From positions 1,052-65,051 of IMG/VR virus record IMGVR_UViG_3300037502_003029: a DNA stretch of 64,000 bases; one strand, given 5' to 3'. Below are positions 5,010-34,535 of this stretch, one piece after another. How positions within the stretch are numbered: position 1 is the stretch's first letter; each line of letters begins with the position of its first letter. This stretch comes from a virus. A program made the position numbers and the translations under genes. The notes under the pieces were generated by a model. It was not told the DNA's origin. It did not search any database and saw only the letters and a program-made list of their open reading frames with translations.

Positions 5010-5729
5010 TTATTGATTAATATATACTTTTTCATTAAATAATATAGTTTCCATCGGTGTTTTAGGATTACCATTTAAATCCTTCTCAATTTGATATTCC
5101 ACTATATCTATTATTTTTCTCCAAACTATAGGGTTATCTATCATTAAATGTTTATCTTCTGTTATAGTTTCACCATCTTGATTAATATATAATCCATTTG
5201 CTACTCCACTATAATAAGCTACATCAGGTATCCATTTAAGATAATCTATGTAAACATCTGTAATATTCATTATATCTCCATGATATATATGTAAACCTTG
5301 TGAATCTTCGTTGCTAAATGTTTCTCTCCAATTAAAACTTGGTTGAACATTTACATCTCTAAGAGATTCTTCTATTTTGTGAGTTTGAATATCGTTTACA
5401 AATAAAGAATCTTCAAGTTCACATTCATATGATTTAGCTTTACAATATCTATTTAAAGTAGTATAATGATCAGAAGGTAATTTAAAAATAGTACTTTTAC
5501 TATTAGTAGATAACTTTTCTAGTTGTTTATTTTTTATTTCAAGAGATTTTAATTTATCTCCTAAAGTTCTGTTTTTCTCTACAATTGCTGAATAGTTTTC
5601 TAATAAAATCTCTTTGGCTTGATTAATATAAGCATCAATATCAACTACAGTAAGTGCTCGATCATAATCAGAGAATACTCTATTCATTCTCCGTTTAATT
5701 TCTGCATGTAATTTTTGTACTTTAATCAT
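5010..5729 (-). CDS. Hypothetical protein (head module)
   Basis: ORF track; start overlaps the upstream gene (ATGA-type coupling). Confidence 0.45.
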   Translation of the reverse strand: MIKVQKLHAEIKRRMNRVFSDYDRALTVVDIDAYINQAKEILLENYSAIVEKNRTLGDKLKSLEIKNKQLEKLSTNSKSTIFKLPSDHYTTLNRYCKAKSYECELEDSLFVNDIQTHKIEESLRDVNVQPSFNWRETFSNEDSQGLHIYHGDIMNITDVYIDYLKWIPDVAYYSGVANGLYINQDGETITEDKHLMIDNPIVWRKIIDIVEYQIEKDLNGNPKTPMETILFNEKVYINQ

Positions 5730-9662: not shown

Positions 9663-12194
9663 TTATTTTGAATTATTTTTTGATTTTGCAGCTATTTTAG
9701 CTTTTTCTATATCTGTTTTTAATTTTTTATCAATAATCTCTCTTTCTAAATCTCTATCTCTCTCTGCATCTTTTTGTTTAAGTTCTTCAACTTGTAAAAG
9801 ATCGCTTCTACCATCTTTATCAATATCCATTTGATTAGCCATAAGCATAGCTTTGATTTTATCTCTAAATTCATTAGATTCTCTATCTAATGCTTTTTCT
9901 CTAGATAACATCTCTTGCTGTTGTTTCATCATCTCTTGCTTCATAGCCTCAAGCTGCTGTGCTTGCTGTGCTTGTTGCTCTTGCATTTGCTGTTGTCTTT
10001 GCATCATCTTTTCTTCTGCTCTCTCAGCTATATTAAGAGCATCCGCCATATTATTAGCCATTTTTAATCTAATATATTCAGGAAAAGATATCATACCATT
10101 TTGTATCATAGCTTGACTATCCATTTTAATCTCTCTAAGATTATTAAAGTCTTCAGATGAATTTCTCAAACTAATACCAATTTCTGCACTATCTATAACT
10201 TCTTTATCTAACTCTAAATCTGCTATAGACATATCATCTAATACATAAGATGCAATATAAGTATTATCTTTTAATGCAATCTTTTCATTCTCTATGTGAC
10301 GATTTAATACTCTTTCTACAATCTCATTATGTAGAGTAAATAAATCTTGTGTTTGATATGTAGATTGTTGTATATTTTGTTGACTATTTCTAACAGCTTC
10401 TGTTGGTACAATTTGACCTAATCTCTGAGGATTATAGTTCATTGCTAAAGCAGCTTGTGCTCTAATCCAATCTAATTGTTGTAAATGACCAGCAATCTCG
10501 TTAAGTTGAGTTAAATCATACTGTTTAAATATTTGAGCATCAGTACCATTTATAAGCTCATTAGAAGTATTTAAAGGTAATATTTTACCATATTTAGCCA
10601 TTCTTAACCATTGAGCATAAGTCCACCCTTCAGGTTTATAAGTATCCGCTACGGTCATTATTTTACCGATATCAGTATTTTCTTTTTCTTGGATTATAGC
10701 TAATTTGATATTAAACTTATCTTGCCAAGGTTTAGCTAAATCTAGAGGAGCTACATTTTCTGTATTATTGAATAATTTAGAAAATTTAGCACCCATAAAA
10801 GGCATCTTAATATTCCAAGGTTCTAACATGTTTTTATATTGATTAGGTACTGGACCTAAATCAAAATATAAATAAGAATCTGTAGAACCATATTCTACTC
10901 TACAACCCATATACGCATGAGGAAACCAATGAGTAGTACAATATAAATCTTTTTTAGGATTTTTCTCATAAGTACCATCCACCCATATTTCTTCATACTC
11001 ATTCTTTTCTACATTATATCTAGTTACTAATTTAAACTTTCTAAGAGATTTAAAAGCAACTGTAGTACGAGTAAATAAAGTATCATTAGGATCTATATTA
11101 CCAAATTTACGGTGTAATTCTAAAAGTACTGATTGTCCTTCTTTTGATTTAATATTTGGTAACTTATCAAAGAATCCAGTTTCTGCATCAAACTGTGCTA
11201 CTTTAGTAGCCATTGGTTCAGGAAACTCTCCTCTAGTTCTTGTAATATTGTTATTATTAGAGGGATCAAATTCTCTTAACTTAGCTATATCTTTTTCAGT
11301 AATCTCATGACCATGATCTCTAAATAGAGTAGATAAACTTATATCTTCTCTATATACTTGCCAATCCATATCTTCTTCAAATAAAGCATCAGCAGGTCCA
11401 CCAGATAAATATCCTATAGGATTAATAATTTTGGTAAATGCTTTTTTATGCTTTATACCTGATTGATATATTTGTCTACCACTAATAAGCATATGTTTAA
11501 AATTCTCATCAGTCCAAAACTTTAACTTATCTCTTCGTATAGTAAACTCAGTAATCTTTTGTAGTAATGTTTCTCTAGGAGATTTATAATCTGAAGCCAT
11601 ATACCTTTCTATATCTTTAGGTAACATGGCTTTAGATTGTTGGTCTACCTGAGATTCAAATTCCTGTTGCATTTCAGGATCTAATTCTGATGGATCTTGT
11701 ATACTATTAGCTTGCATCCATTGCTGCATTGCTGTTTGACGAGCAGGTTCTATATATTCTTGTTGTAACCAATCTTGATATAATTCTAACTTTTTCTTTT
11801 TACGATAATTAACATTATCTACAGATGAGTCTGTAACTATTGGTTTAAAAGGCATCAATTGTTGTTGACCTAATAAAGATTTACCAATAGGCGTTATAAT
11901 ATCAAAATGAGGTATATCTTCACTATTAAAGTAATAACCAGAATCTTCTATATCATCTGCTATAAATGGACTAGAAACATCAGTTTTATAAATTCCTCTA
12001 GCATTCCATAATCTATAATTTAGTAAATCTTTTTCTAAAAGATCTGGATCGACGTAATCAAATTGATCCGCATAGTAATCAATCCAATCTTTTAACCATT
12101 TCCAGTTGTTAGCTTTTTTTTGAGAATGAGTAGTTCTATGTTGGCTAACACTTTGATGACTAATTGGTACACCTAATGTATTTAATGGTTCCAT
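9663..12194 (-). CDS. Putative portal protein with Q-rich coiled-coil C-terminal extension
   Basis: 843 aa ORF immediately downstream of and abutting terL (positional); C-terminus QQQMQEQQAQQAQQLEAMKQEMMKQQQEM. Confidence 0.4.
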   Translation of the reverse strand: MEPLNTLGVPISHQSVSQHRTTHSQKKANNWKWLKDWIDYYADQFDYVDPDLLEKDLLNYRLWNARGIYKTDVSSPFIADDIEDSGYYFNSEDIPHFDIITPIGKSLLGQQQLMPFKPIVTDSSVDNVNYRKKKKLELYQDWLQQEYIEPARQTAMQQWMQANSIQDPSELDPEMQQEFESQVDQQSKAMLPKDIERYMASDYKSPRETLLQKITEFTIRRDKLKFWTDENFKHMLISGRQIYQSGIKHKKAFTKIINPIGYLSGGPADALFEEDMDWQVYREDISLSTLFRDHGHEITEKDIAKLREFDPSNNNNITRTRGEFPEPMATKVAQFDAETGFFDKLPNIKSKEGQSVLLELHRKFGNIDPNDTLFTRTTVAFKSLRKFKLVTRYNVEKNEYEEIWVDGTYEKNPKKDLYCTTHWFPHAYMGCRVEYGSTDSYLYFDLGPVPNQYKNMLEPWNIKMPFMGAKFSKLFNNTENVAPLDLAKPWQDKFNIKLAIIQEKENTDIGKIMTVADTYKPEGWTYAQWLRMAKYGKILPLNTSNELINGTDAQIFKQYDLTQLNEIAGHLQQLDWIRAQAALAMNYNPQRLGQIVPTEAVRNSQQNIQQSTYQTQDLFTLHNEIVERVLNRHIENEKIALKDNTYIASYVLDDMSIADLELDKEVIDSAEIGISLRNSSEDFNNLREIKMDSQAMIQNGMISFPEYIRLKMANNMADALNIAERAEEKMMQRQQQMQEQQAQQAQQLEAMKQEMMKQQQEMLSREKALDRESNEFRDKIKAMLMANQMDIDKDGRSDLLQVEELKQKDAERDRDLEREIIDKKLKTDIEKAKIAAKSKNNSK

Positions 12195-15780: not shown

Positions 15781-15857
15781 TGGTAGCAGATGTGAGAATC
15801 AAACTCACCTTTATATAGGTTATGAGACTGATAAGTTCACCAGAACTTTAATCTGCG
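15781..15857 (-). ncRNA. tRNA-like RNA with encoded CCA but no foldable anticodon arm (pseudo-tRNA or Y-RNA-like tRNA mimic)
   Basis: Acceptor CGCAGAT/ATCTGCT (6 bp), U8-A9, D-stem AAGT/ACTT with GG, T-stem GTGAG/CTCAC with loop TTTGATT, 3' ACCA. No 5-bp stem could be found around the CTCATAA loop. Confidence 0.4.
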
Positions 15858-28375: not shown

Positions 28376-28389
28376 AAAAATAACAAAAG

Positions 28390-30054
28390 ATGTTTAACAG
28401 CAAACAAACTCAACTAATTTCAAAAGATGAAACTAAACAAAAAACATCTGCTTTTGTTAATGCTGGTTTAAAAAAATCAGCAGAAACAACTTCAGGTAAT
28501 GGTGCTTTAAAATATAGCACTACTGGTAATGATTTTGTAGATCAATTTGGTAAACTTGGTTCATATAAATCACCAAGAAGTTTTGAAGATATATCTCGTG
28601 ATATGTCTACATTATGGGCTCAAAACGCCTTACTTACTGTATGTTTTGTATTTTTTATAAGAATGATAACTCGTGTAGTTCAGTTCTTTGATAATACTAA
28701 AACATCAACTGTACAACGTGGAGCAGGATTAAAACATGAAGGTATTTTTAGAATGATATGGATTCATATACATCATAAAGATACCTTTTGGAAAAACATA
28801 TCATTATGGATTTCTATAGGTAGCTGGAAAGATATTATAACCATGCTCTCTTATGATCTTCAATATAATGGATGGAAAGATAGAAAATTAGATTGGGATA
28901 GTTTTGGTAAACTAATTTTAGCAGGATTAGAAAATCCTAATACTGTTAATTTAGTAAAAAAATATTTACCACAAATAAAATCTAACTCACAATGTACAAC
29001 ATTAGAAGCGCAAGCTGATAATATAATTGCAAAGTGGATATGTTCTTTATTATTTGGTAGTAAAGAAACTCCATCTAGTTATAAAAAATATAGAAAACTT
29101 AAAGCTTCAGGTACAGCGCATCAATGGCAGCAATTAATATCTCAACGTAAGCATAATCTTATTGATTTTAATACTGTTCACGGTAGAGCACTATCTCAAT
29201 TAGTATCTAGTAAATATTTGAAAAATCAAGGTTTAGAAGCTAAATATCAGAAGTGGATAGAATCTAAACCTATAGCTAAATTTACTGGATATGTACATGA
29301 ATTGTTTCACAAACTACCTCAAACAAAATATCAAATAGATACTTTAAATGCTCAATTTAATGGATTAGTAGAAACAGCAAAAAAAAATGCTACAACTGCT
29401 ACATCTATGATTGTAGTTAGAGATACATCTTATTCTATGAGAAGTTTTGCAACTGGTACTAATATGGCATGTTATAACGTTGCAAAAGCTCTTGCTTTGT
29501 TTTTTAGTGAAATGCTACCTAATGGTGCATTTGCTAATTCATGGATTGAATTTAATTCAAGTGCAAAAATGCGTACATGGAAAGGATCTACTCCATATGA
29601 AAAATGGACAAATGATACATCCAGTTATATTGGTAGTACAAACTTTCAATCAGTAATAAAACTTTTTTGTAATATTAAAGAGCAAGGAATCTCTGAATCA
29701 GAATTTCCAACAGGTATTATCTGTATAAGTGATAGTGAATTTAATCCTGCAGGTTTAAATAAGACTAATGTACAAACCGCCTTATCTACTTTAAGAAAAG
29801 AAGGTTTTTCTGAAGAATATGTTTCTAATTTTAAAATAGTTCTTTGGAATTTACAATCTAAAGCATATGGAGGAGCAGGAAATAAATTTGAAACCTATGG
29901 TAATGTACCTAATGTTTATTACTTTAGTGGTTTTGATGGTTCTATTGTAGCATTTCTCACTGGAGTAGAAGGTAAAACTTTTACACCAAGCACTGCTGAA
30001 GAATTATTTTTAGCAGCAATGGATCAAGAGATTTTGAAAAAGATAGTAGTATAA
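28390..30054 (+). CDS. vWA/MIDAS-domain protein with Ro60/Rsr-like architecture (N-terminal helical ~330 aa, C-terminal vWA)
   Basis: MIDAS IVVRDTSYSM (DxSxS) at about aa 340 of 554; the size and domain order match TROVE+vWA Ro60 orthologues. The TROVE assignment itself is inferred and not verified. Confidence 0.4.
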   Translation: MFNSKQTQLISKDETKQKTSAFVNAGLKKSAETTSGNGALKYSTTGNDFVDQFGKLGSYKSPRSFEDISRDMSTLWAQNALLTVCFVFFIRMITRVVQFFDNTKTSTVQRGAGLKHEGIFRMIWIHIHHKDTFWKNISLWISIGSWKDIITMLSYDLQYNGWKDRKLDWDSFGKLILAGLENPNTVNLVKKYLPQIKSNSQCTTLEAQADNIIAKWICSLLFGSKETPSSYKKYRKLKASGTAHQWQQLISQRKHNLIDFNTVHGRALSQLVSSKYLKNQGLEAKYQKWIESKPIAKFTGYVHELFHKLPQTKYQIDTLNAQFNGLVETAKKNATTATSMIVVRDTSYSMRSFATGTNMACYNVAKALALFFSEMLPNGAFANSWIEFNSSAKMRTWKGSTPYEKWTNDTSSYIGSTNFQSVIKLFCNIKEQGISESEFPTGIICISDSEFNPAGLNKTNVQTALSTLRKEGFSEEYVSNFKIVLWNLQSKAYGGAGNKFETYGNVPNVYYFSGFDGSIVAFLTGVEGKTFTPSTAEELFLAAMDQEILKKIVV

Positions 30055-30355
30055 ATCAAAACGAAGTAACAGAAAGAATTGGTGTATATAGCACATCTGT
30101 TATTTTTTTACATGGGGGATAATAGGCAATCGACTAATAATAAAAAATATACAATCAGCAGTGAGAATGGTAGTAGTCTCACTATAATAACTTATACCAA
30201 ACATTAAATGGCAATTTATTTAACAAATTGACTGAAGGTGCTAAAGTAGTATCTTTGGTTTCAAGTTTTAAACCACAAGTAGCAGTTGCTGCTTGATCTT
30301 GAGCAAACAAAGGTTTTTTATAATTTCTCTATTTTAGTATTAATATAAATAGAGT

Positions 30356-30480
30356 GGTGGATGCTTAACCGTACTGGTTAGCCCTTTTTATTCTTGTAGG
30401 TAGTAAAAGAACCTTCATTAAGCTGTATAAATTGTATATCGTATATTATTAACACACGGGTTCGAGTCCCGTATCCTCCA
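30356..30480 (+). ncRNA. tRNA-like/Y-RNA-like element
   Basis: Canonical T-arm ACGGG-TTCGAGT-CCCGT at 30456-30472 and acceptor 3' strand ATCCTCC+A. The only complementary 5' strand is GGTGGAT, 111 nt upstream. An internal hairpin CTTTT...AAAAG is present. Confidence 0.35.
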
Positions 30481-30505
30481 CAAATAAGCAAATTATAGTT
30501 TTTAT

Positions 30506-31610: not shown

Positions 31611-32393
31611 ATGAAAAAATATTTTGTAATTTTATTATTTAGTTTTATCTTTGTGGCCTGTACTTCAGTAGATTCAGGACATAAAGGTGTAGAAGTATCA
31701 TGGGGTGGTAAGACCAACATGAACAAAATTTATGATGAAGGTCTGCATTCGGGATTGCACTGGATACTTGATGATATGATAGAATATGATGTAAGAGAAA
31801 GAACTCTAACCAAAAAATTTGAGTTTAACGATAAAAATAATATGAAAACTGGTGTAGAATTATCAGTTGATTATTCTTTACAAGCAAATGCTGTTAATAC
31901 TATTCATAGTAAAATAGGTAAAGACCAAATTGAAGTTAAAATTTTAACTACTATTAGTTCAGCAGCTAAACAAGTTATTCCTCAATATTCTGCAACAGAA
32001 CTCAATTTAAATAAACGAGAAGAAGCTGAAGATAAATTTTTGGAAATAGTAAAAAAAGAATTTCCAGATTTTTATGTAAATGCTTCAAGAGTTCGTATTA
32101 CTGATGTAGATATTCCTAATCAAATTGCTGAAGCTGCAGAAGCTAATGCTAAACAGCAAGAGCTTAATAAGTTATCTCAATCTAAAGTTGAACAAGCTAA
32201 AAATGAGTTTAATGCTGCTGAATATAATGCTAAAACAAAAGCTATTCTATCTAAACCAGAAATGCTTGAACTACAACGTGTAGAAAATGAGCGTTTAATG
32301 TGGGAAGGATTTAAAACCCATGGTAAATCACCATATGGTGAACATAACGTATTCGGAGGAAATCTTTTATTATCAAAACCTTTAAATAATTAA
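31611..32393 (+). CDS. SPFH/Band-7 (prohibitin/HflKC-like) lipoprotein
   Basis: Lipobox FVACTS; SGHKGVEVSWGG resembles the SPFH N-terminal motif; long C-terminal coiled coil. Confidence 0.4.
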   Translation: MKKYFVILLFSFIFVACTSVDSGHKGVEVSWGGKTNMNKIYDEGLHSGLHWILDDMIEYDVRERTLTKKFEFNDKNNMKTGVELSVDYSLQANAVNTIHSKIGKDQIEVKILTTISSAAKQVIPQYSATELNLNKREEAEDKFLEIVKKEFPDFYVNASRVRITDVDIPNQIAEAAEANAKQQELNKLSQSKVEQAKNEFNAAEYNAKTKAILSKPEMLELQRVENERLMWEGFKTHGKSPYGEHNVFGGNLLLSKPLNN

Positions 32394-32394
32394 A

Positions 32395-32688
32395 ATGCTT
32401 TATTTTCATTCCAAACATGCCCGAAACAGAGTAACTGTTTGCGGTGATTTTTGTGAAGATGGTCTTTGTTTAACTGCAGCTAGATGTAGTGATAAAGATA
32501 ATTTTTGTAGAAAAGAAGGTAGAATACGTGCAGAAGGACGCTTTAACAAAAAGCGTACTTGCGTAACAGTACCGGTTGAAGAAGCTAATTTAAAAACTTT
32601 TGTAGATTTAGCTTCAAAATTCGCTGATTTTGTATCAGCAAACATTAAATTTAAAGACCTTTTAAAACAGGGCGTAAAGCCATTTTAA
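32395..32688 (+). CDS. Hypothetical Cys-rich protein
   Basis: ORF track. Confidence 0.35.
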   Translation: MLYFHSKHARNRVTVCGDFCEDGLCLTAARCSDKDNFCRKEGRIRAEGRFNKKRTCVTVPVEEANLKTFVDLASKFADFVSANIKFKDLLKQGVKPF

Positions 32689-32711: not shown

Positions 32712-32780
32712 GGAAATCTTACAGCAAATTAATAACAATTTTGTTCGACCATATTTAAATTAAATTTTATATAGATTTCC
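32712..32780 (+). ncRNA. Structured RNA unit A (terminal helix GGAAATCT/AGATTTCC; ACAGCAAATTAATA box)
   Basis: Perfect 8-bp inverted repeat closing a 69-nt unit; conserved box directly 3' of the 5' strand. Confidence 0.5.
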
Positions 32781-32785
32781 GATAA

Positions 32786-32850
32786 GAACAGTTACAGCAA
32801 ATTAATACAAGCACCAAACTTTTAATTTGACACGCTAATTAATACTGTTC
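32786..32850 (+). ncRNA. Structured RNA unit B (GAACAGT/ACTGTTC; ACAGCAAATTAATA box)
   Basis: As unit A; GATAAG linker on both sides. Confidence 0.5.
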
Positions 32851-32855
32851 TGATA

Positions 32856-32964
32856 AGTACACACACAGCAAATATTAAAAAAAACGGATCAACAACATTA
32901 ATTTCTATTTAATACTTGTAAATCCTAGTTGGTTCAAATCCAGCAGGTTGAAATAAAGTGTACT
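32856..32964 (+). ncRNA. Structured RNA unit C (AGTACAC/GTGTACT) containing anticodon-like hairpin ATTTA-ATACTTG-TAAAT and T-arm GTTGG-TTCAAAT-CCAGC
   Basis: Seen in sequence. Confidence 0.5.
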
Positions 32965-32968
32965 GATA

Positions 32969-33104
32969 AAGATAGTAACAGCAACTTTTATGTTAAAGAA
33001 GATCTGTGGGTCACAAGTTCAAATCTTGTATTCTTATGTAAATAAGAATTAGCTCAGTTGGTAGAGCAATGGAATAAAACAAAATACTATCTTGTTTTTT
33101 TTTT
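32969..33104 (+). ncRNA. Structured RNA unit D (AAGATAGTA/TACTATCTT, then T10) with circularly permuted tRNA module: T-arm + acceptor 3' strand ATTCTTA, 6-nt spacer, acceptor 5' strand TAAGAAT + canonical D-arm AGCTCAGTTGGTAGAGC
   Basis: Seen in sequence; both acceptor strands are perfectly complementary but in reversed gene order. Confidence 0.5.
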
Positions 33105-33122
33105 AATTTTAAAACTTAAAAA

Positions 33123-33620
33123 ATGAATCTTAAAACAGACGATTTTTTAGTAAAATTATATAACGAAGTATATGACAAATTACCTACAAATGTATGTAGT
33201 TTTTTTTGGGGAACATTTTATATTATGTTAAATTTTTTAACAACTATATTTGGAATTATCCAATTAAGTGTTTCATATTATTATTATAATAAAGATAAAT
33301 CAAGTGCAATTGATGCTATAATTGGAATAACTTATTTAGAAAGATTTTTACAAGTCCTATTTATTAGTAATATTATTCAAAATCTTAAAATTACTACAAA
33401 TTATATACTTTTAGATTATATAATATTTATATCGTTAATAGTAGTTACTATTATTTTATTTTATTTTTTAACTAATTTTATAGGGTTTATTAGTGATATT
33501 ATAAGTAATTATTCAAATAGTCCGAGTAAACAAAAAAATAATAAACAACCTGGTTTAATAAAAACTTATTTTAAAAGTATAAAAGAAAAGTATTGTGAAT
33601 TAATCACATATACTGATTAA
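33123..33620 (+). CDS. Hypothetical multi-pass membrane protein
   Basis: Three or four hydrophobic helices. Confidence 0.45.
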   Translation: MNLKTDDFLVKLYNEVYDKLPTNVCSFFWGTFYIMLNFLTTIFGIIQLSVSYYYYNKDKSSAIDAIIGITYLERFLQVLFISNIIQNLKITTNYILLDYIIFISLIVVTIILFYFLTNFIGFISDIISNYSNSPSKQKNNKQPGLIKTYFKSIKEKYCELITYTD

Positions 33621-33628
33621 TATTATAT

Positions 33629-33744
33629 GGGGGCAGATGGAAATTTTAATCAGTATTGATTAATAACAGCAAATTATAATTAAATAAATAGCACAAATTG
33701 TCACTTTGTAGTTCATTACATCCTGAAAGTAATTGCCCCCGCCA
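33629..33744 (+). ncRNA. Structured RNA unit U1 (GGGGGCA ... TGCCCCC-G-CCA: acceptor-like stem with encoded CCA; internal hairpin TTAATCA/TGATTAA; ACAGCAAATTATAA box)
   Basis: Seen in sequence. Confidence 0.45.
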
Positions 33745-33746
33745 CA

Positions 33747-33820
33747 AGATATCATACAGCAAATTAAAAATATTTAAACACAAAAATAGGGATTTTGCAA
33801 GTTTTTATAAAATGATATCT
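33747..33820 (+). ncRNA. Structured RNA unit U2 (AGATATCAT/ATGATATCT; ACAGCAAATTAAAAA box)
   Basis: Perfect 9-bp terminal helix. Confidence 0.5.
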
Positions 33821-33828
33821 GTTTAATA

Positions 33829-33926
33829 AATTCTCATACAGCAAGTATATATATAAAAAAATCTTTTTCTAAACAAAAGCGAAGCCTGGATGGTGGGTAT
33901 TAAGGGTTCGATTCCCTACGAGAATT
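33829..33926 (+). ncRNA. Structured RNA unit U3 (AATTCTCAT/ACGAGAATT, 8 of 9 bp) containing T-arm-like AGGG-TTCGATT-CCCT
   Basis: Seen in sequence. Confidence 0.45.
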
Positions 33927-33931
33927 GATAA

Positions 33932-33992
33932 GAGTACATACAGCAAATTTAAAAACACCCTGATTTATAATTTGGTTATGTAAAATGTACTC
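33932..33992 (+). ncRNA. Structured RNA unit U4 (GAGTACAT/ATGTACTC; ACAGCAAATTTAAAAA box)
   Basis: Perfect 8-bp terminal helix. Confidence 0.5.
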
Positions 33993-33997
33993 TGATA

Positions 33998-34070
33998 AGA
34001 AGCGAAACAGCAAATTAATTATAGGACTAGACTTTTAATCTAACATTCTAAATAATCGCTTCTGTTTTTT
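33998..34070 (+). ncRNA. Structured RNA unit U5 (AGAAGCGA/TCGCTTCT, then T6) with anticodon-like loop CTTTTAA on stem TAGA/TCTA
   Basis: Seen in sequence. Confidence 0.5.
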
Positions 34071-34166: not shown

Positions 34167-34535
34167 ATGAGCAAAATCAGTCTAGAAAGATTTAAACAAA
34201 GTATTAAATCAGGTAAAATACCTATTAAAAAAAGATACGGCGGTAAGCTAAAATGGTTCGGAGAACTTGCAGTTTTTGGTGATTATGTATTGGATTCAGT
34301 AACCGCAGAATTTGATTATAAAGGAGTTGATAAAAATAAAATTAAAAACTTTTTAAATTCAAATGAATTTATGCGATTTTGTACTCCAAAATTATATCCC
34401 AAAAACTGCACTTATTATAGCGGTCCATTTTTAGCTGATGCTGCCGAAGCTTATATAGGTAGATTATTTTTAAACAGTGGCGAAAAAGCTGTAACAGAAT
34501 ATATATTACACAATTTAAGAAAATATATAGAATAA
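34167..34535 (+). CDS. Hypothetical protein
   Basis: ORF track. Confidence 0.4.
   Translation: MSKISLERFKQSIKSGKIPIKKRYGGKLKWFGELAVFGDYVLDSVTAEFDYKGVDKNKIKNFLNSNEFMRFCTPKLYPKNCTYYSGPFLADAAEAYIGRLFLNSGEKAVTEYILHNLRKYIE

Follow-up and report, generated by a model that had tools for sequence, protein, structure and literature searches.

A 64,000-nucleotide (nt) stretch of viral DNA (IMG/VR record IMGVR_UViG_3300037502_003029, positions 1,052 to 65,051; here called the window) carries nine stem-closed units on the + strand in two blocks, U1 to U4 at 32712-33093 and U5 to U9 at 33629-34063, separated by an open reading frame (ORF) for a 165-amino-acid membrane protein (33123-33620). Upstream on the same strand lies a gene of the DUF2828/DUF7788 family, and its start codon is embedded in a further copy of the motif shared by the units. 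This motif, which we call the handle, comprises a 7-bp helix, 2 nt, and the box ACAGCAA(AU). A sequence-only reading of this DNA had proposed nine RNAs resembling Y RNAs or transfer RNAs (tRNAs), and the units are present where it placed them. Our analysis points to nine tRNA-mimic RNAs that would be ligands of a Ro60-shaped DUF2828 protein. Unit, gene and ORF coordinates are positions in the window unless a locus label (L and a number) is given. Bit scores in the following list refer to the Rfam family Dicty_Class_I_RNA (RF01414).

28388-28449, + strand: handle mimic at the DUF2828 start codon, AG-AUGUUUA-ACAGCAAAC...AAAACAUCU-G, with the AUG inside the 5' strand; recovered by the strict grammar search
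28390-30054, + strand: DUF2828/DUF7788 gene, 554 amino acids; predicted helical-repeat ring plus von Willebrand factor A (vWA) domain; putative partner of the RNAs
32712-32780, + strand: U1, short; stem GGAAAUCU/AGAUUUCC, box at 32721; 19.7 bits
32785-32851, + strand: U2, short; anticodon-stem-loop mimic CAAA-CUUUUAA-UUUG at 32815-32829; 18.6 bits
32856-32964, + strand: U3; T-arm GUUGG-UUCAAAU-CCAGC at 32928-32944
32969-33093, + strand: U4, YrlA-like; T-arm 33013-33029, loop-closed acceptor stem 33030-33049, D-arm 33050-33067; G and a T-run come after the unit
33629-33744, + strand: U5, inside-out; termini form a 7-bp acceptor-like stem GGGGGCA/UGCCCCC, then G-CCA
33747-33820, + strand: U6, short; 22.5 bits
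33829-33926, + strand: U7; T-arm AGGG-UUCGAUU-CCCU at 33903-33917, stacked beside the 3' strand of the closing stem
33931-33993, + strand: U8, short; 21.6 bits
33998-34070, + strand: U9, short; anticodon-stem-loop mimic UAGA-CUUUUAA-UCUA at 34028-34042; end ...CU-G-UUUUUU (T-run 34065-34070)

Handle grammar, covariation and tRNA parts

Inspection of the arrays revealed that eight of the units obey one grammar. The 5' strand reads A-G-N5 and forms the 7-bp helix with a terminal N5-C-U; it is followed by 2 nt, often unpaired, then by ACAGCAA(AU) and a variable interior of 30-100 nt. The spacer between neighbouring stems is exactly 4 nt and mostly GAUA (...CU-GAUA-AG...), a joint present in U1-U4 and U7-U9 and missing at U5/U6 and U6/U7. 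The last unit of each block ends in ...CU-G-U(6-10), and the two T-runs that had been seen to close the arrays lie at 33095-33104 and 34065-34070. The (T)GATAAG linker of the sequence-only reading therefore stands as a joint at U1-U4 and U7-U9 only, and it takes in the last pair of one stem and the first pair of the next, the spacer itself being GAUA. The repeats had been described as perfect over 6-9 bp; in U7, however, the stem has 7 bp and a mismatch rather than 9 perfect pairs.

The unit with an internal box, and with an acceptor-like stem followed by G-CCA (TGCCCCC-G-CCA), proved to be U5 and not U1 as had been proposed. In U5 the handle is a local hairpin inside the unit, UUAAUCA-GUAU-UGAUUAA-UA-ACAGCAAAU at 33646-33674, the helix of which occupies 33646-33663. 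The same layout, with the handle hairpin inside a tRNA-like frame, was found at a Myxococcota locus, L159.

All seven + strand copies of ACAGCAAAT in the window fall within the array region. A strict grammar search, requiring the box plus at least 7 bp of closing from position 1, returned a single + strand match besides the eight array units and the start site of DUF2828; there were two matches on the - strand, and block-shuffled windows averaged 2.7 over both strands. When the array was compared with 50,697 phage records by blastn there was no match, so it is the grammar that is conserved and not the sequence. Rfam models called nothing in the arrays at gathering thresholds, and promoter and terminator scans gave background levels. 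That the arrays are neither a simple tandem repeat nor a clustered regularly interspaced short palindromic repeat (CRISPR) array, as had been claimed, was borne out: the conserved part is about 13 nt (CU-GAUA-AG plus box), and the flanking 5-7 nt differ unit by unit and pair across the "spacer," unlike CRISPR direct repeats.

The end helix was assessed in 40 units, drawn from the window and from 10 related loci. These units were defined purely by consecutive box positions, which avoids circularity; the 5' strand was taken as the 9 nt before a box and the 3' strand as the 9 nt whose end lies 13 nt before the following box. Register counts were used instead of a covariance model of our own since, with interiors of 30-100 nt, the 3' strands cannot be anchored by MAFFT, and a model of spliced mini-constructs was avoided because it would misjudge the insert. 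In register, a mean of 7.5 of the 9 positions pair, and 85% of the 40 units have at least 7 pairs. When the register is moved by 1-6 nt, pairing falls to 2.4-3.9 positions, and no more than 5% of the units reach 7 pairs. Paired cells make up 83.6% in register, compared with 54% in shuffles (none of 500 reached the observed value) and 33-43% at slid registers. Both sides have changed in 114 cells, and the covariation score is 0.76 versus 0.22. Positions 1 to 7 of the helix are solid (position 1 is A-U in 34/40 units, position 2 is G-C in 28/40), and positions 8 and 9 are often open.

The tRNA parts listed in the sequence-only reading were recovered, namely T-arms at 32928-32944, 33013-33029 and 33903-33917, a D-arm at 33050-33067, and anticodon-loop mimics at 32815-32829 and 34028-34042. 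No part of 32712-34070 was called as a tRNA cloverleaf by ARAGORN or the Rfam tRNA model (RF00005). Mimicry was counted over 75 nonredundant units from all loci. Of the 75, 16 have a stem of 4 bp or more that closes a CUNNNAA loop, compared with 0.72 ± 0.88 in dinucleotide shuffles, and a CUUUUAA loop was found 6 times, compared with 0.01. In U2 and U9, a 4-bp stem closes CUUUUAA, which is the anticodon loop of tRNA-Lys(UUU); the remaining CUNNNAA loops correspond to anticodons for Thr, Pro, Phe, Cys, Ser or Leu. The T-loop GGTTCGA is present in 15/75 units, and within the array of locus L084 a score of 52.6 bits was obtained at 239-299 with the tRNA model (positions 6-65).

Two units of the window have counterparts in the closest isolated relative, a Leptolyngbya phage (locus L001). 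The U6 interior, AGGGAUUUUGCA(A/C)GUUU, is common to the first unit of that phage (6923-6990), with different stems, and an equivalent of U7 is present as well. We also noted that UUUGC of the U6-type interior could pair with GCAAA of the box and might mask the handle.

The DUF2828 protein and its linkage to the handle RNAs

The ORF at 28390-30054 matches Pfam DUF7788 and PHROG 850, and its relatives carry both PF11443 (DUF2828) and PF25043 (DUF7788). No TROVE match was obtained for this protein in Pfam, and sequence (phmmer) and profile searches of the PDB with it found nothing, Ro60 included. An AlphaFold2 model was obtained (predicted local distance difference test, 85; predicted template modeling score, 0.87). 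Its best Foldseek matches are all Ro60 structures (1yvr, 2i91 and 9nep), aligned at full length, and the model has the ring of helical repeats and the C-terminal vWA domain bearing the metal ion-dependent adhesion site motif that mark the Ro60/TROVE fold. The structural matches to Ro60, combined with empty PDB sequence and profile searches, indicate that the modelled protein is Ro60-shaped and belongs to a family without detectable sequence relationship to TROVE. The Ro60-like upstream protein of the sequence-only reading thus holds for the predicted fold, and for a family that is linked to the motif across distant phages, and fails for TROVE membership.

We counted 2,490 clusters of the DUF2828 family at 50% identity and over 7,900 at 90%. 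Members are encoded by phages of Listeria, Bacillus, Enterococcus, E. coli, Klebsiella and Vibrio and by cyanophages; the name DUF2828 is also given to mimivirus-like proteins and turns up in lists of plant genes. A literature search on DUF2828 function, the ACAGCAA motif, and Ro60, phage, anticodon or decoy found no description of this system.

The handle mimic at the DUF2828 start codon is shared with close relatives and is conserved as RNA. Nine of 11 distinct gene starts keep AGAUGUU pairing with a downstream (A)CAUCU-G (6-8 bp, 50-71 nt), and six of the 11 retain the exact ACAGCAA. Codons 3 and 4 are AAC-AGC, rare in this phage (usage, 0.17 x 0.06; joint, about 0.011), and the residues encoded by the mimic fall in the low-confidence N-terminal tail of the AlphaFold2 model. 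In KVP40, a very distant member, the start site has an independent version whose AUG belongs to the 3' strand. As a pattern in sequence, this suggests that the mimic is a translational operator that imitates the ligand and through which DUF2828 regulates itself. It is the strongest argument that the protein reads the handle.

The same linkage was observed elsewhere. In the closest isolate, Leptolyngbya phage Lbo-JY46, the protein is 47% identical and a five-unit array begins 8 nt past its stop codon; the box and joints are as in the window, and the stems are different yet complementary. Four IMG/VR relatives (L002-L005) have the same gene-then-array arrangement. Viral contigs were then scanned blindly for TGATAAG-N7-ACAGCAA, the matches to which are mostly chance. 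This revealed 14 distinct loci with at least three conforming units on one strand; at 12 of the 14 a DUF2828 ORF lies directly upstream on the same strand, and the other two are cut off on the upstream side.

Units were also found in phages in which the DUF2828 protein is only 20-25% identical to that of the window. Bacillus phage Tsamsa has four units in and after its tRNA cluster, and Fusobacterium phage phiKSUM has one, between promoter-like hexamers and the DUF2828 gene. Listeria phage LMTA-94 has three units just upstream of the gene, and units lie at the gene in Enterococcus phage CCS1 (three), Klebsiella phage phi1_175008 (five) and E. coli phage phiSUSP1 (four). Arrays stand beside DUF2828 without a tRNA cluster at L001-L005, L136, L141 and the Saprospiraceae locus L167.

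A DUF2828 clade is present on long contigs of bacteria, the longest of them a Saprospiraceae chromosome assembly of 8 Mb; the contigs are assigned to Saprospiraceae, Chitinophagales, Lewinella and deltaproteobacterial metagenome-assembled genomes (MAGs). Here one to three units of the form AAG...[A/U/G]CAGCA...CUGU(G) follow the DUF2828 stop codon, with UCAGCAA and GCAGCAC as box variants. At L159 the RNA is tRNA-like and has its handle hairpin between the D-arm and the T-arm, as in U5. The handle RNA/DUF2828 system is widespread in phages and also occurs on long bacterial contigs, as at the following loci.

L167, 5041-5310 (Saprospiraceae): handle RNAs
L165, 5090-5260: handle RNAs
L159, about 5270-5400 (Myxococcota): handle RNA

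Several further features were noted around DUF2828 genes. The gene adjoins RNA ligases, an RNA ligase in GAP32 and a gene annotated "tRNA-splicing ligase" in Listeria phage LMTA-94 (loci L129, L133, L007, L131 and L134), and the DUF2828 genes of this set also lie within large tRNA clusters. This neighbourhood is consistent with a role of DUF2828 in tRNA damage or repair. In Enterococcus phage CCS1 (L130, 3290-3750), a conserved hairpin of about 45 nt, GGTTTTGnCA...GTTCCnnCCTnAnnGGnnGCCGGAAC-ATA, precedes each of the three units and may be a promoter or processing signal.

In the window itself, a transfer-messenger RNA (tmRNA)-like gene at 30114-30483 (+ strand) directly follows the DUF2828 stop codon. 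It aligns with the full-length Rfam tmRNA model at 23.4 bits (threshold, 47; local E value, 1.4e-7) and was missed by ARAGORN; its tag frame ends in ...KPQVAVAA-stop, a typical ssrA-type ending, and its acceptor stem is GGGGGAUA/UAUCCUCC, followed by ACAA. Between the DUF2828 gene and the array lies a gene for an SPFH/Band-7 protein (31611-32393, + strand), a 51%-identical copy of which is located a few kilobases from the L002 array. A noncanonical tRNA-like gene at 15786-15856 (- strand), directly upstream of tRNA-Asp, matches the tRNA-Sec model at 27.7 bits (threshold, 47) and has a T-arm and the end ...AUCUGC-U-ACCA; ARAGORN did not call it. Two further candidates were discarded. Clusters of ACAGCAA on the - strand at 9915-9987 are a Gln-rich coding repeat and not RNA units, and the ORF at 34167-34535, considered as a processing enzyme, has a weak RNase III-like match (E value, 0.0023, below the cutoff) and is not conserved beside other arrays. 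Nor are the small flanking ORFs at 32395 and 33123 conserved beside arrays at other loci.

Comparison with known RNA families

YrlA RNAs are encoded near TROVE Ro60 genes in bacteria and in 22 phages (PMC4201824); a phage example of Ro60 with Y RNA is the Ro60 of Thermus phage phiLo with Yrl1/2 (PMC12135203). Only U4, one of the nine units, matches the YrlA model (RF02553), at 28.2 bits compared with a gathering score of 69; the alignment spans the full-length model (local E value, 0.0017). U4 has the YrlA module order of T-arm, loop-closed acceptor stem and D-arm at 33013-33067, and modules in this order were also found in units of L003 and of Tsamsa and the Enterococcus, Klebsiella and phiSUSP1 phages. 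The neighbouring protein is DUF7788/DUF2828 and not a TROVE-domain Ro60. The proposed likeness to Y RNAs is thus upheld by the U4 alignment and does not extend to YrlA membership, the handle being unlike the Ro-binding helix.

The architecture would work alike in both systems, with handle RNAs and a Ro60-shaped protein. The phage protein has no sequence or profile link to TROVE, however, and its putative handle is a 7-bp helix with single-stranded ACAGCAA rather than the Ro-binding bulged helix. Up to nine RNAs are present per phage array, not one or two, and many units are minimal, a "handle plus anticodon stem-loop." The phage system adds a handle mimic on the start codon of the protein itself.

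Dicty_Class_I_RNA is the only other Rfam family that matched repeatedly, and every match in the loci scanned is an array-type unit. Besides the four window units (18.6-22.5 bits), eight units at other loci score 23-39.3 bits; the best score, 39.3 bits (E value, 5.8e-4; Leptolyngbya phage), is below the gathering threshold of 41.5. As described by Kjellin et al. (2021; PMC7919456), Class I RNAs measure 42-65 nt, begin with AAG and end in CUGU; they have a covarying 6-bp end helix, CCUUACAGCAA beside its 5' strand, and an interior that varies. Reported as absent outside Dictyostelia, they come from individual eukaryotic genes whose DUSE promoter lies about 60 nt upstream, and one direct binder, the RNA recognition motif (RRM) protein Rnp1A, is named in the available text. 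Compared with this description, the phage units have the short covarying end helix, the ACAGCAA-containing motif after the 5' strand, the AAG start and the CUG(U) end; CUGU ends occur in the last units of arrays and in the units on bacterial contigs. The units differ from Class I RNAs, as described there, in G-to-box spacing, by one nucleotide, and in being arranged in tandem with 4-nt spacers, without the DUSE promoter or a dictyostelid host.

In searches for DUF2828 that were aimed at dictyostelids, an exhaustive hidden Markov model search had only close phage relatives among its best 150 matches, the proteins retrieved with the family consensus and with a query from a long deltaproteobacterial MAG contig were all of phages or bacteria, and in a partial D. 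discoideum proteome (the Kjellin supplement) only an unrelated vWA protein was found. It is possible, and in our view rather doubtful, that handle RNAs form one ancient family comprising those of phages, Bacteroidota and deltaproteobacterial/Myxococcota MAGs and the dictyostelid Class I RNAs, with the handle docking DUF2828 throughout.

The arrays also resemble phage tRNA clusters in their location in or near tRNA islands, in their T-arms, D-arms and anticodon loops, and in their polycistronic layout with short spacers. Unlike tRNA genes, the units are not called as tRNAs, their tRNA parts are partial or permuted, and they share a non-tRNA handle linked to one specific protein gene.

Function of the arrays and alternative explanations

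We put at roughly 70% the probability that the nine handle-bearing, tRNA-mimic RNAs are ligands of the Ro60-shaped DUF2828 protein, forming a particle like that of Ro60 and Y RNA with a new protein family and a new handle. What we infer of the transcription, processing, direct binding, autoregulation and cellular role of these RNAs and their protein is as follows. The arrays would probably be made as two multiunit + strand transcripts and cut at the 4-nt GAUA joints. The handle, with ACAGCAA(AU) presumably single stranded, would be the docking site for DUF2828, as the terminal helix of a Y RNA is for Ro60; its helix would be formed by the two ends of the RNA in eight units and by the internal hairpin in U5. 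In its variable part, each RNA would display a piece of tRNA, be it the anticodon stem-loop, the T-arm, the T/acceptor/D "elbow" or the CCA acceptor end. Such pieces may engage, or act as decoys for, tRNA-recognizing enzymes, with anticodon nucleases, repair ligases, modification enzymes and exonucleases as candidate targets. Finally, the DUF2828 protein probably binds the handle copy that holds its own start codon and so may limit its own translation.

Several observations weigh against this interpretation. The window array is 2.7 kb from the DUF2828 gene and not adjacent to it. The match to the Ro60 fold has a template modeling score of just about 0.5, and the empty PDB searches reported above count in the same direction. 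In GAP32 no unit was found by the grammar search, KVP40 is atypical, and several high-GC Myxococcota DUF2828 loci gave no unit by regular expression. Moreover, about 20% of random positions in the AT-rich DNA of the window give a closing stem of at least 7 bp by chance. Since such stems are frequent, single units, the start-codon mimic included, rest on comparative evidence.

A different factor might instead read the handle, for example a chaperone, an RNase of the host or an enzyme that processes tRNA. The units would then be tRNA-like stable RNAs from the tRNA island of the phage, and DUF2828 a mere neighbour in tRNA clusters. The position of gene and units in or near such clusters in Tsamsa, phi1_175008, phiSUSP1, LMTA-94 and CCS1 would fit this, as would Rnp1A, the direct binder of RNAs of the same grammar named for Dictyostelium in the available text of PMC7919456. 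Yet arrays stand beside DUF2828 where there is no tRNA cluster (L001-L005, L136, L141 and L167), the gene is immediately upstream at 12/12 testable loci of the blind scan, and a handle on the DUF2828 start codon in many relatives is hard to explain without a protein that reads the motif. We therefore consider another reader improbable. It is also very unlikely that the locus encodes the already known system, ordinary YrlA or Y RNA with a canonical TROVE Ro60. The full-length alignment of U4, the occurrence of YrlA near Ro60 in 22 phages (PMC4201824) and the Ro60-like fold speak for it; against these stand a score of 28.2 versus 69 bits in 1/9 units, a protein of DUF7788/DUF2828 and not TROVE type with no PDB match to Ro60, and the lack of the ACAGCAA handle in the YrlA consensus.

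The tRNA parts in many interiors could mean that we are dealing with tRNA genes that have decayed or been split (pseudogenes, permuted genes or genes with introns) and have no common function, the box being a remnant of duplication. There is little chance of this, as neither ARAGORN nor the Rfam tRNA model calls a unit in the window and the interiors are mutually unrelated while the handle is kept. Retention of the grammar in phages whose proteins are just 20-47% identical, together with covariation of the helix, reflects purifying selection and not decay. A feature acting at the DNA level, such as promoter or terminator cassettes, an element with terminal inverted repeats like a miniature inverted-repeat transposable element, or recombination sites, appears extremely unlikely. 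Inverted repeats do bound every unit and T-runs do close the arrays, but the repeats differ from unit to unit and are nonetheless complementary, so that no terminal repeat is common to the units. Scans for promoters and terminators did not rise above background, the tRNA-like parts and the box are strictly on one strand, and sigma-70-like hexamers upstream of a unit in phiKSUM and Tsamsa imply that the box would be transcribed.

If the array RNAs are ligands of DUF2828, the phage particle would be a second lineage of Ro60/Y-RNA-like particle, unrelated in sequence to the first. DUF2828 is a very large family, and a defined RNA ligand would make of it a testable ribonucleoprotein. The system is located where phages counter host defences that target tRNA, and, with their multiple units, the arrays bring to mind a "display rack" for tRNA mimics that could be programmed. 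The near-identity of the handle to Class I RNAs provides a concrete hypothesis for the mechanism of those RNAs, a question since 2004. If the more tentative notion of one ancient family is true, Class I RNAs would be a eukaryotic branch of Ro/Y-like RNAs, possibly of bacterial or viral origin, and their protein partner would be predictable.

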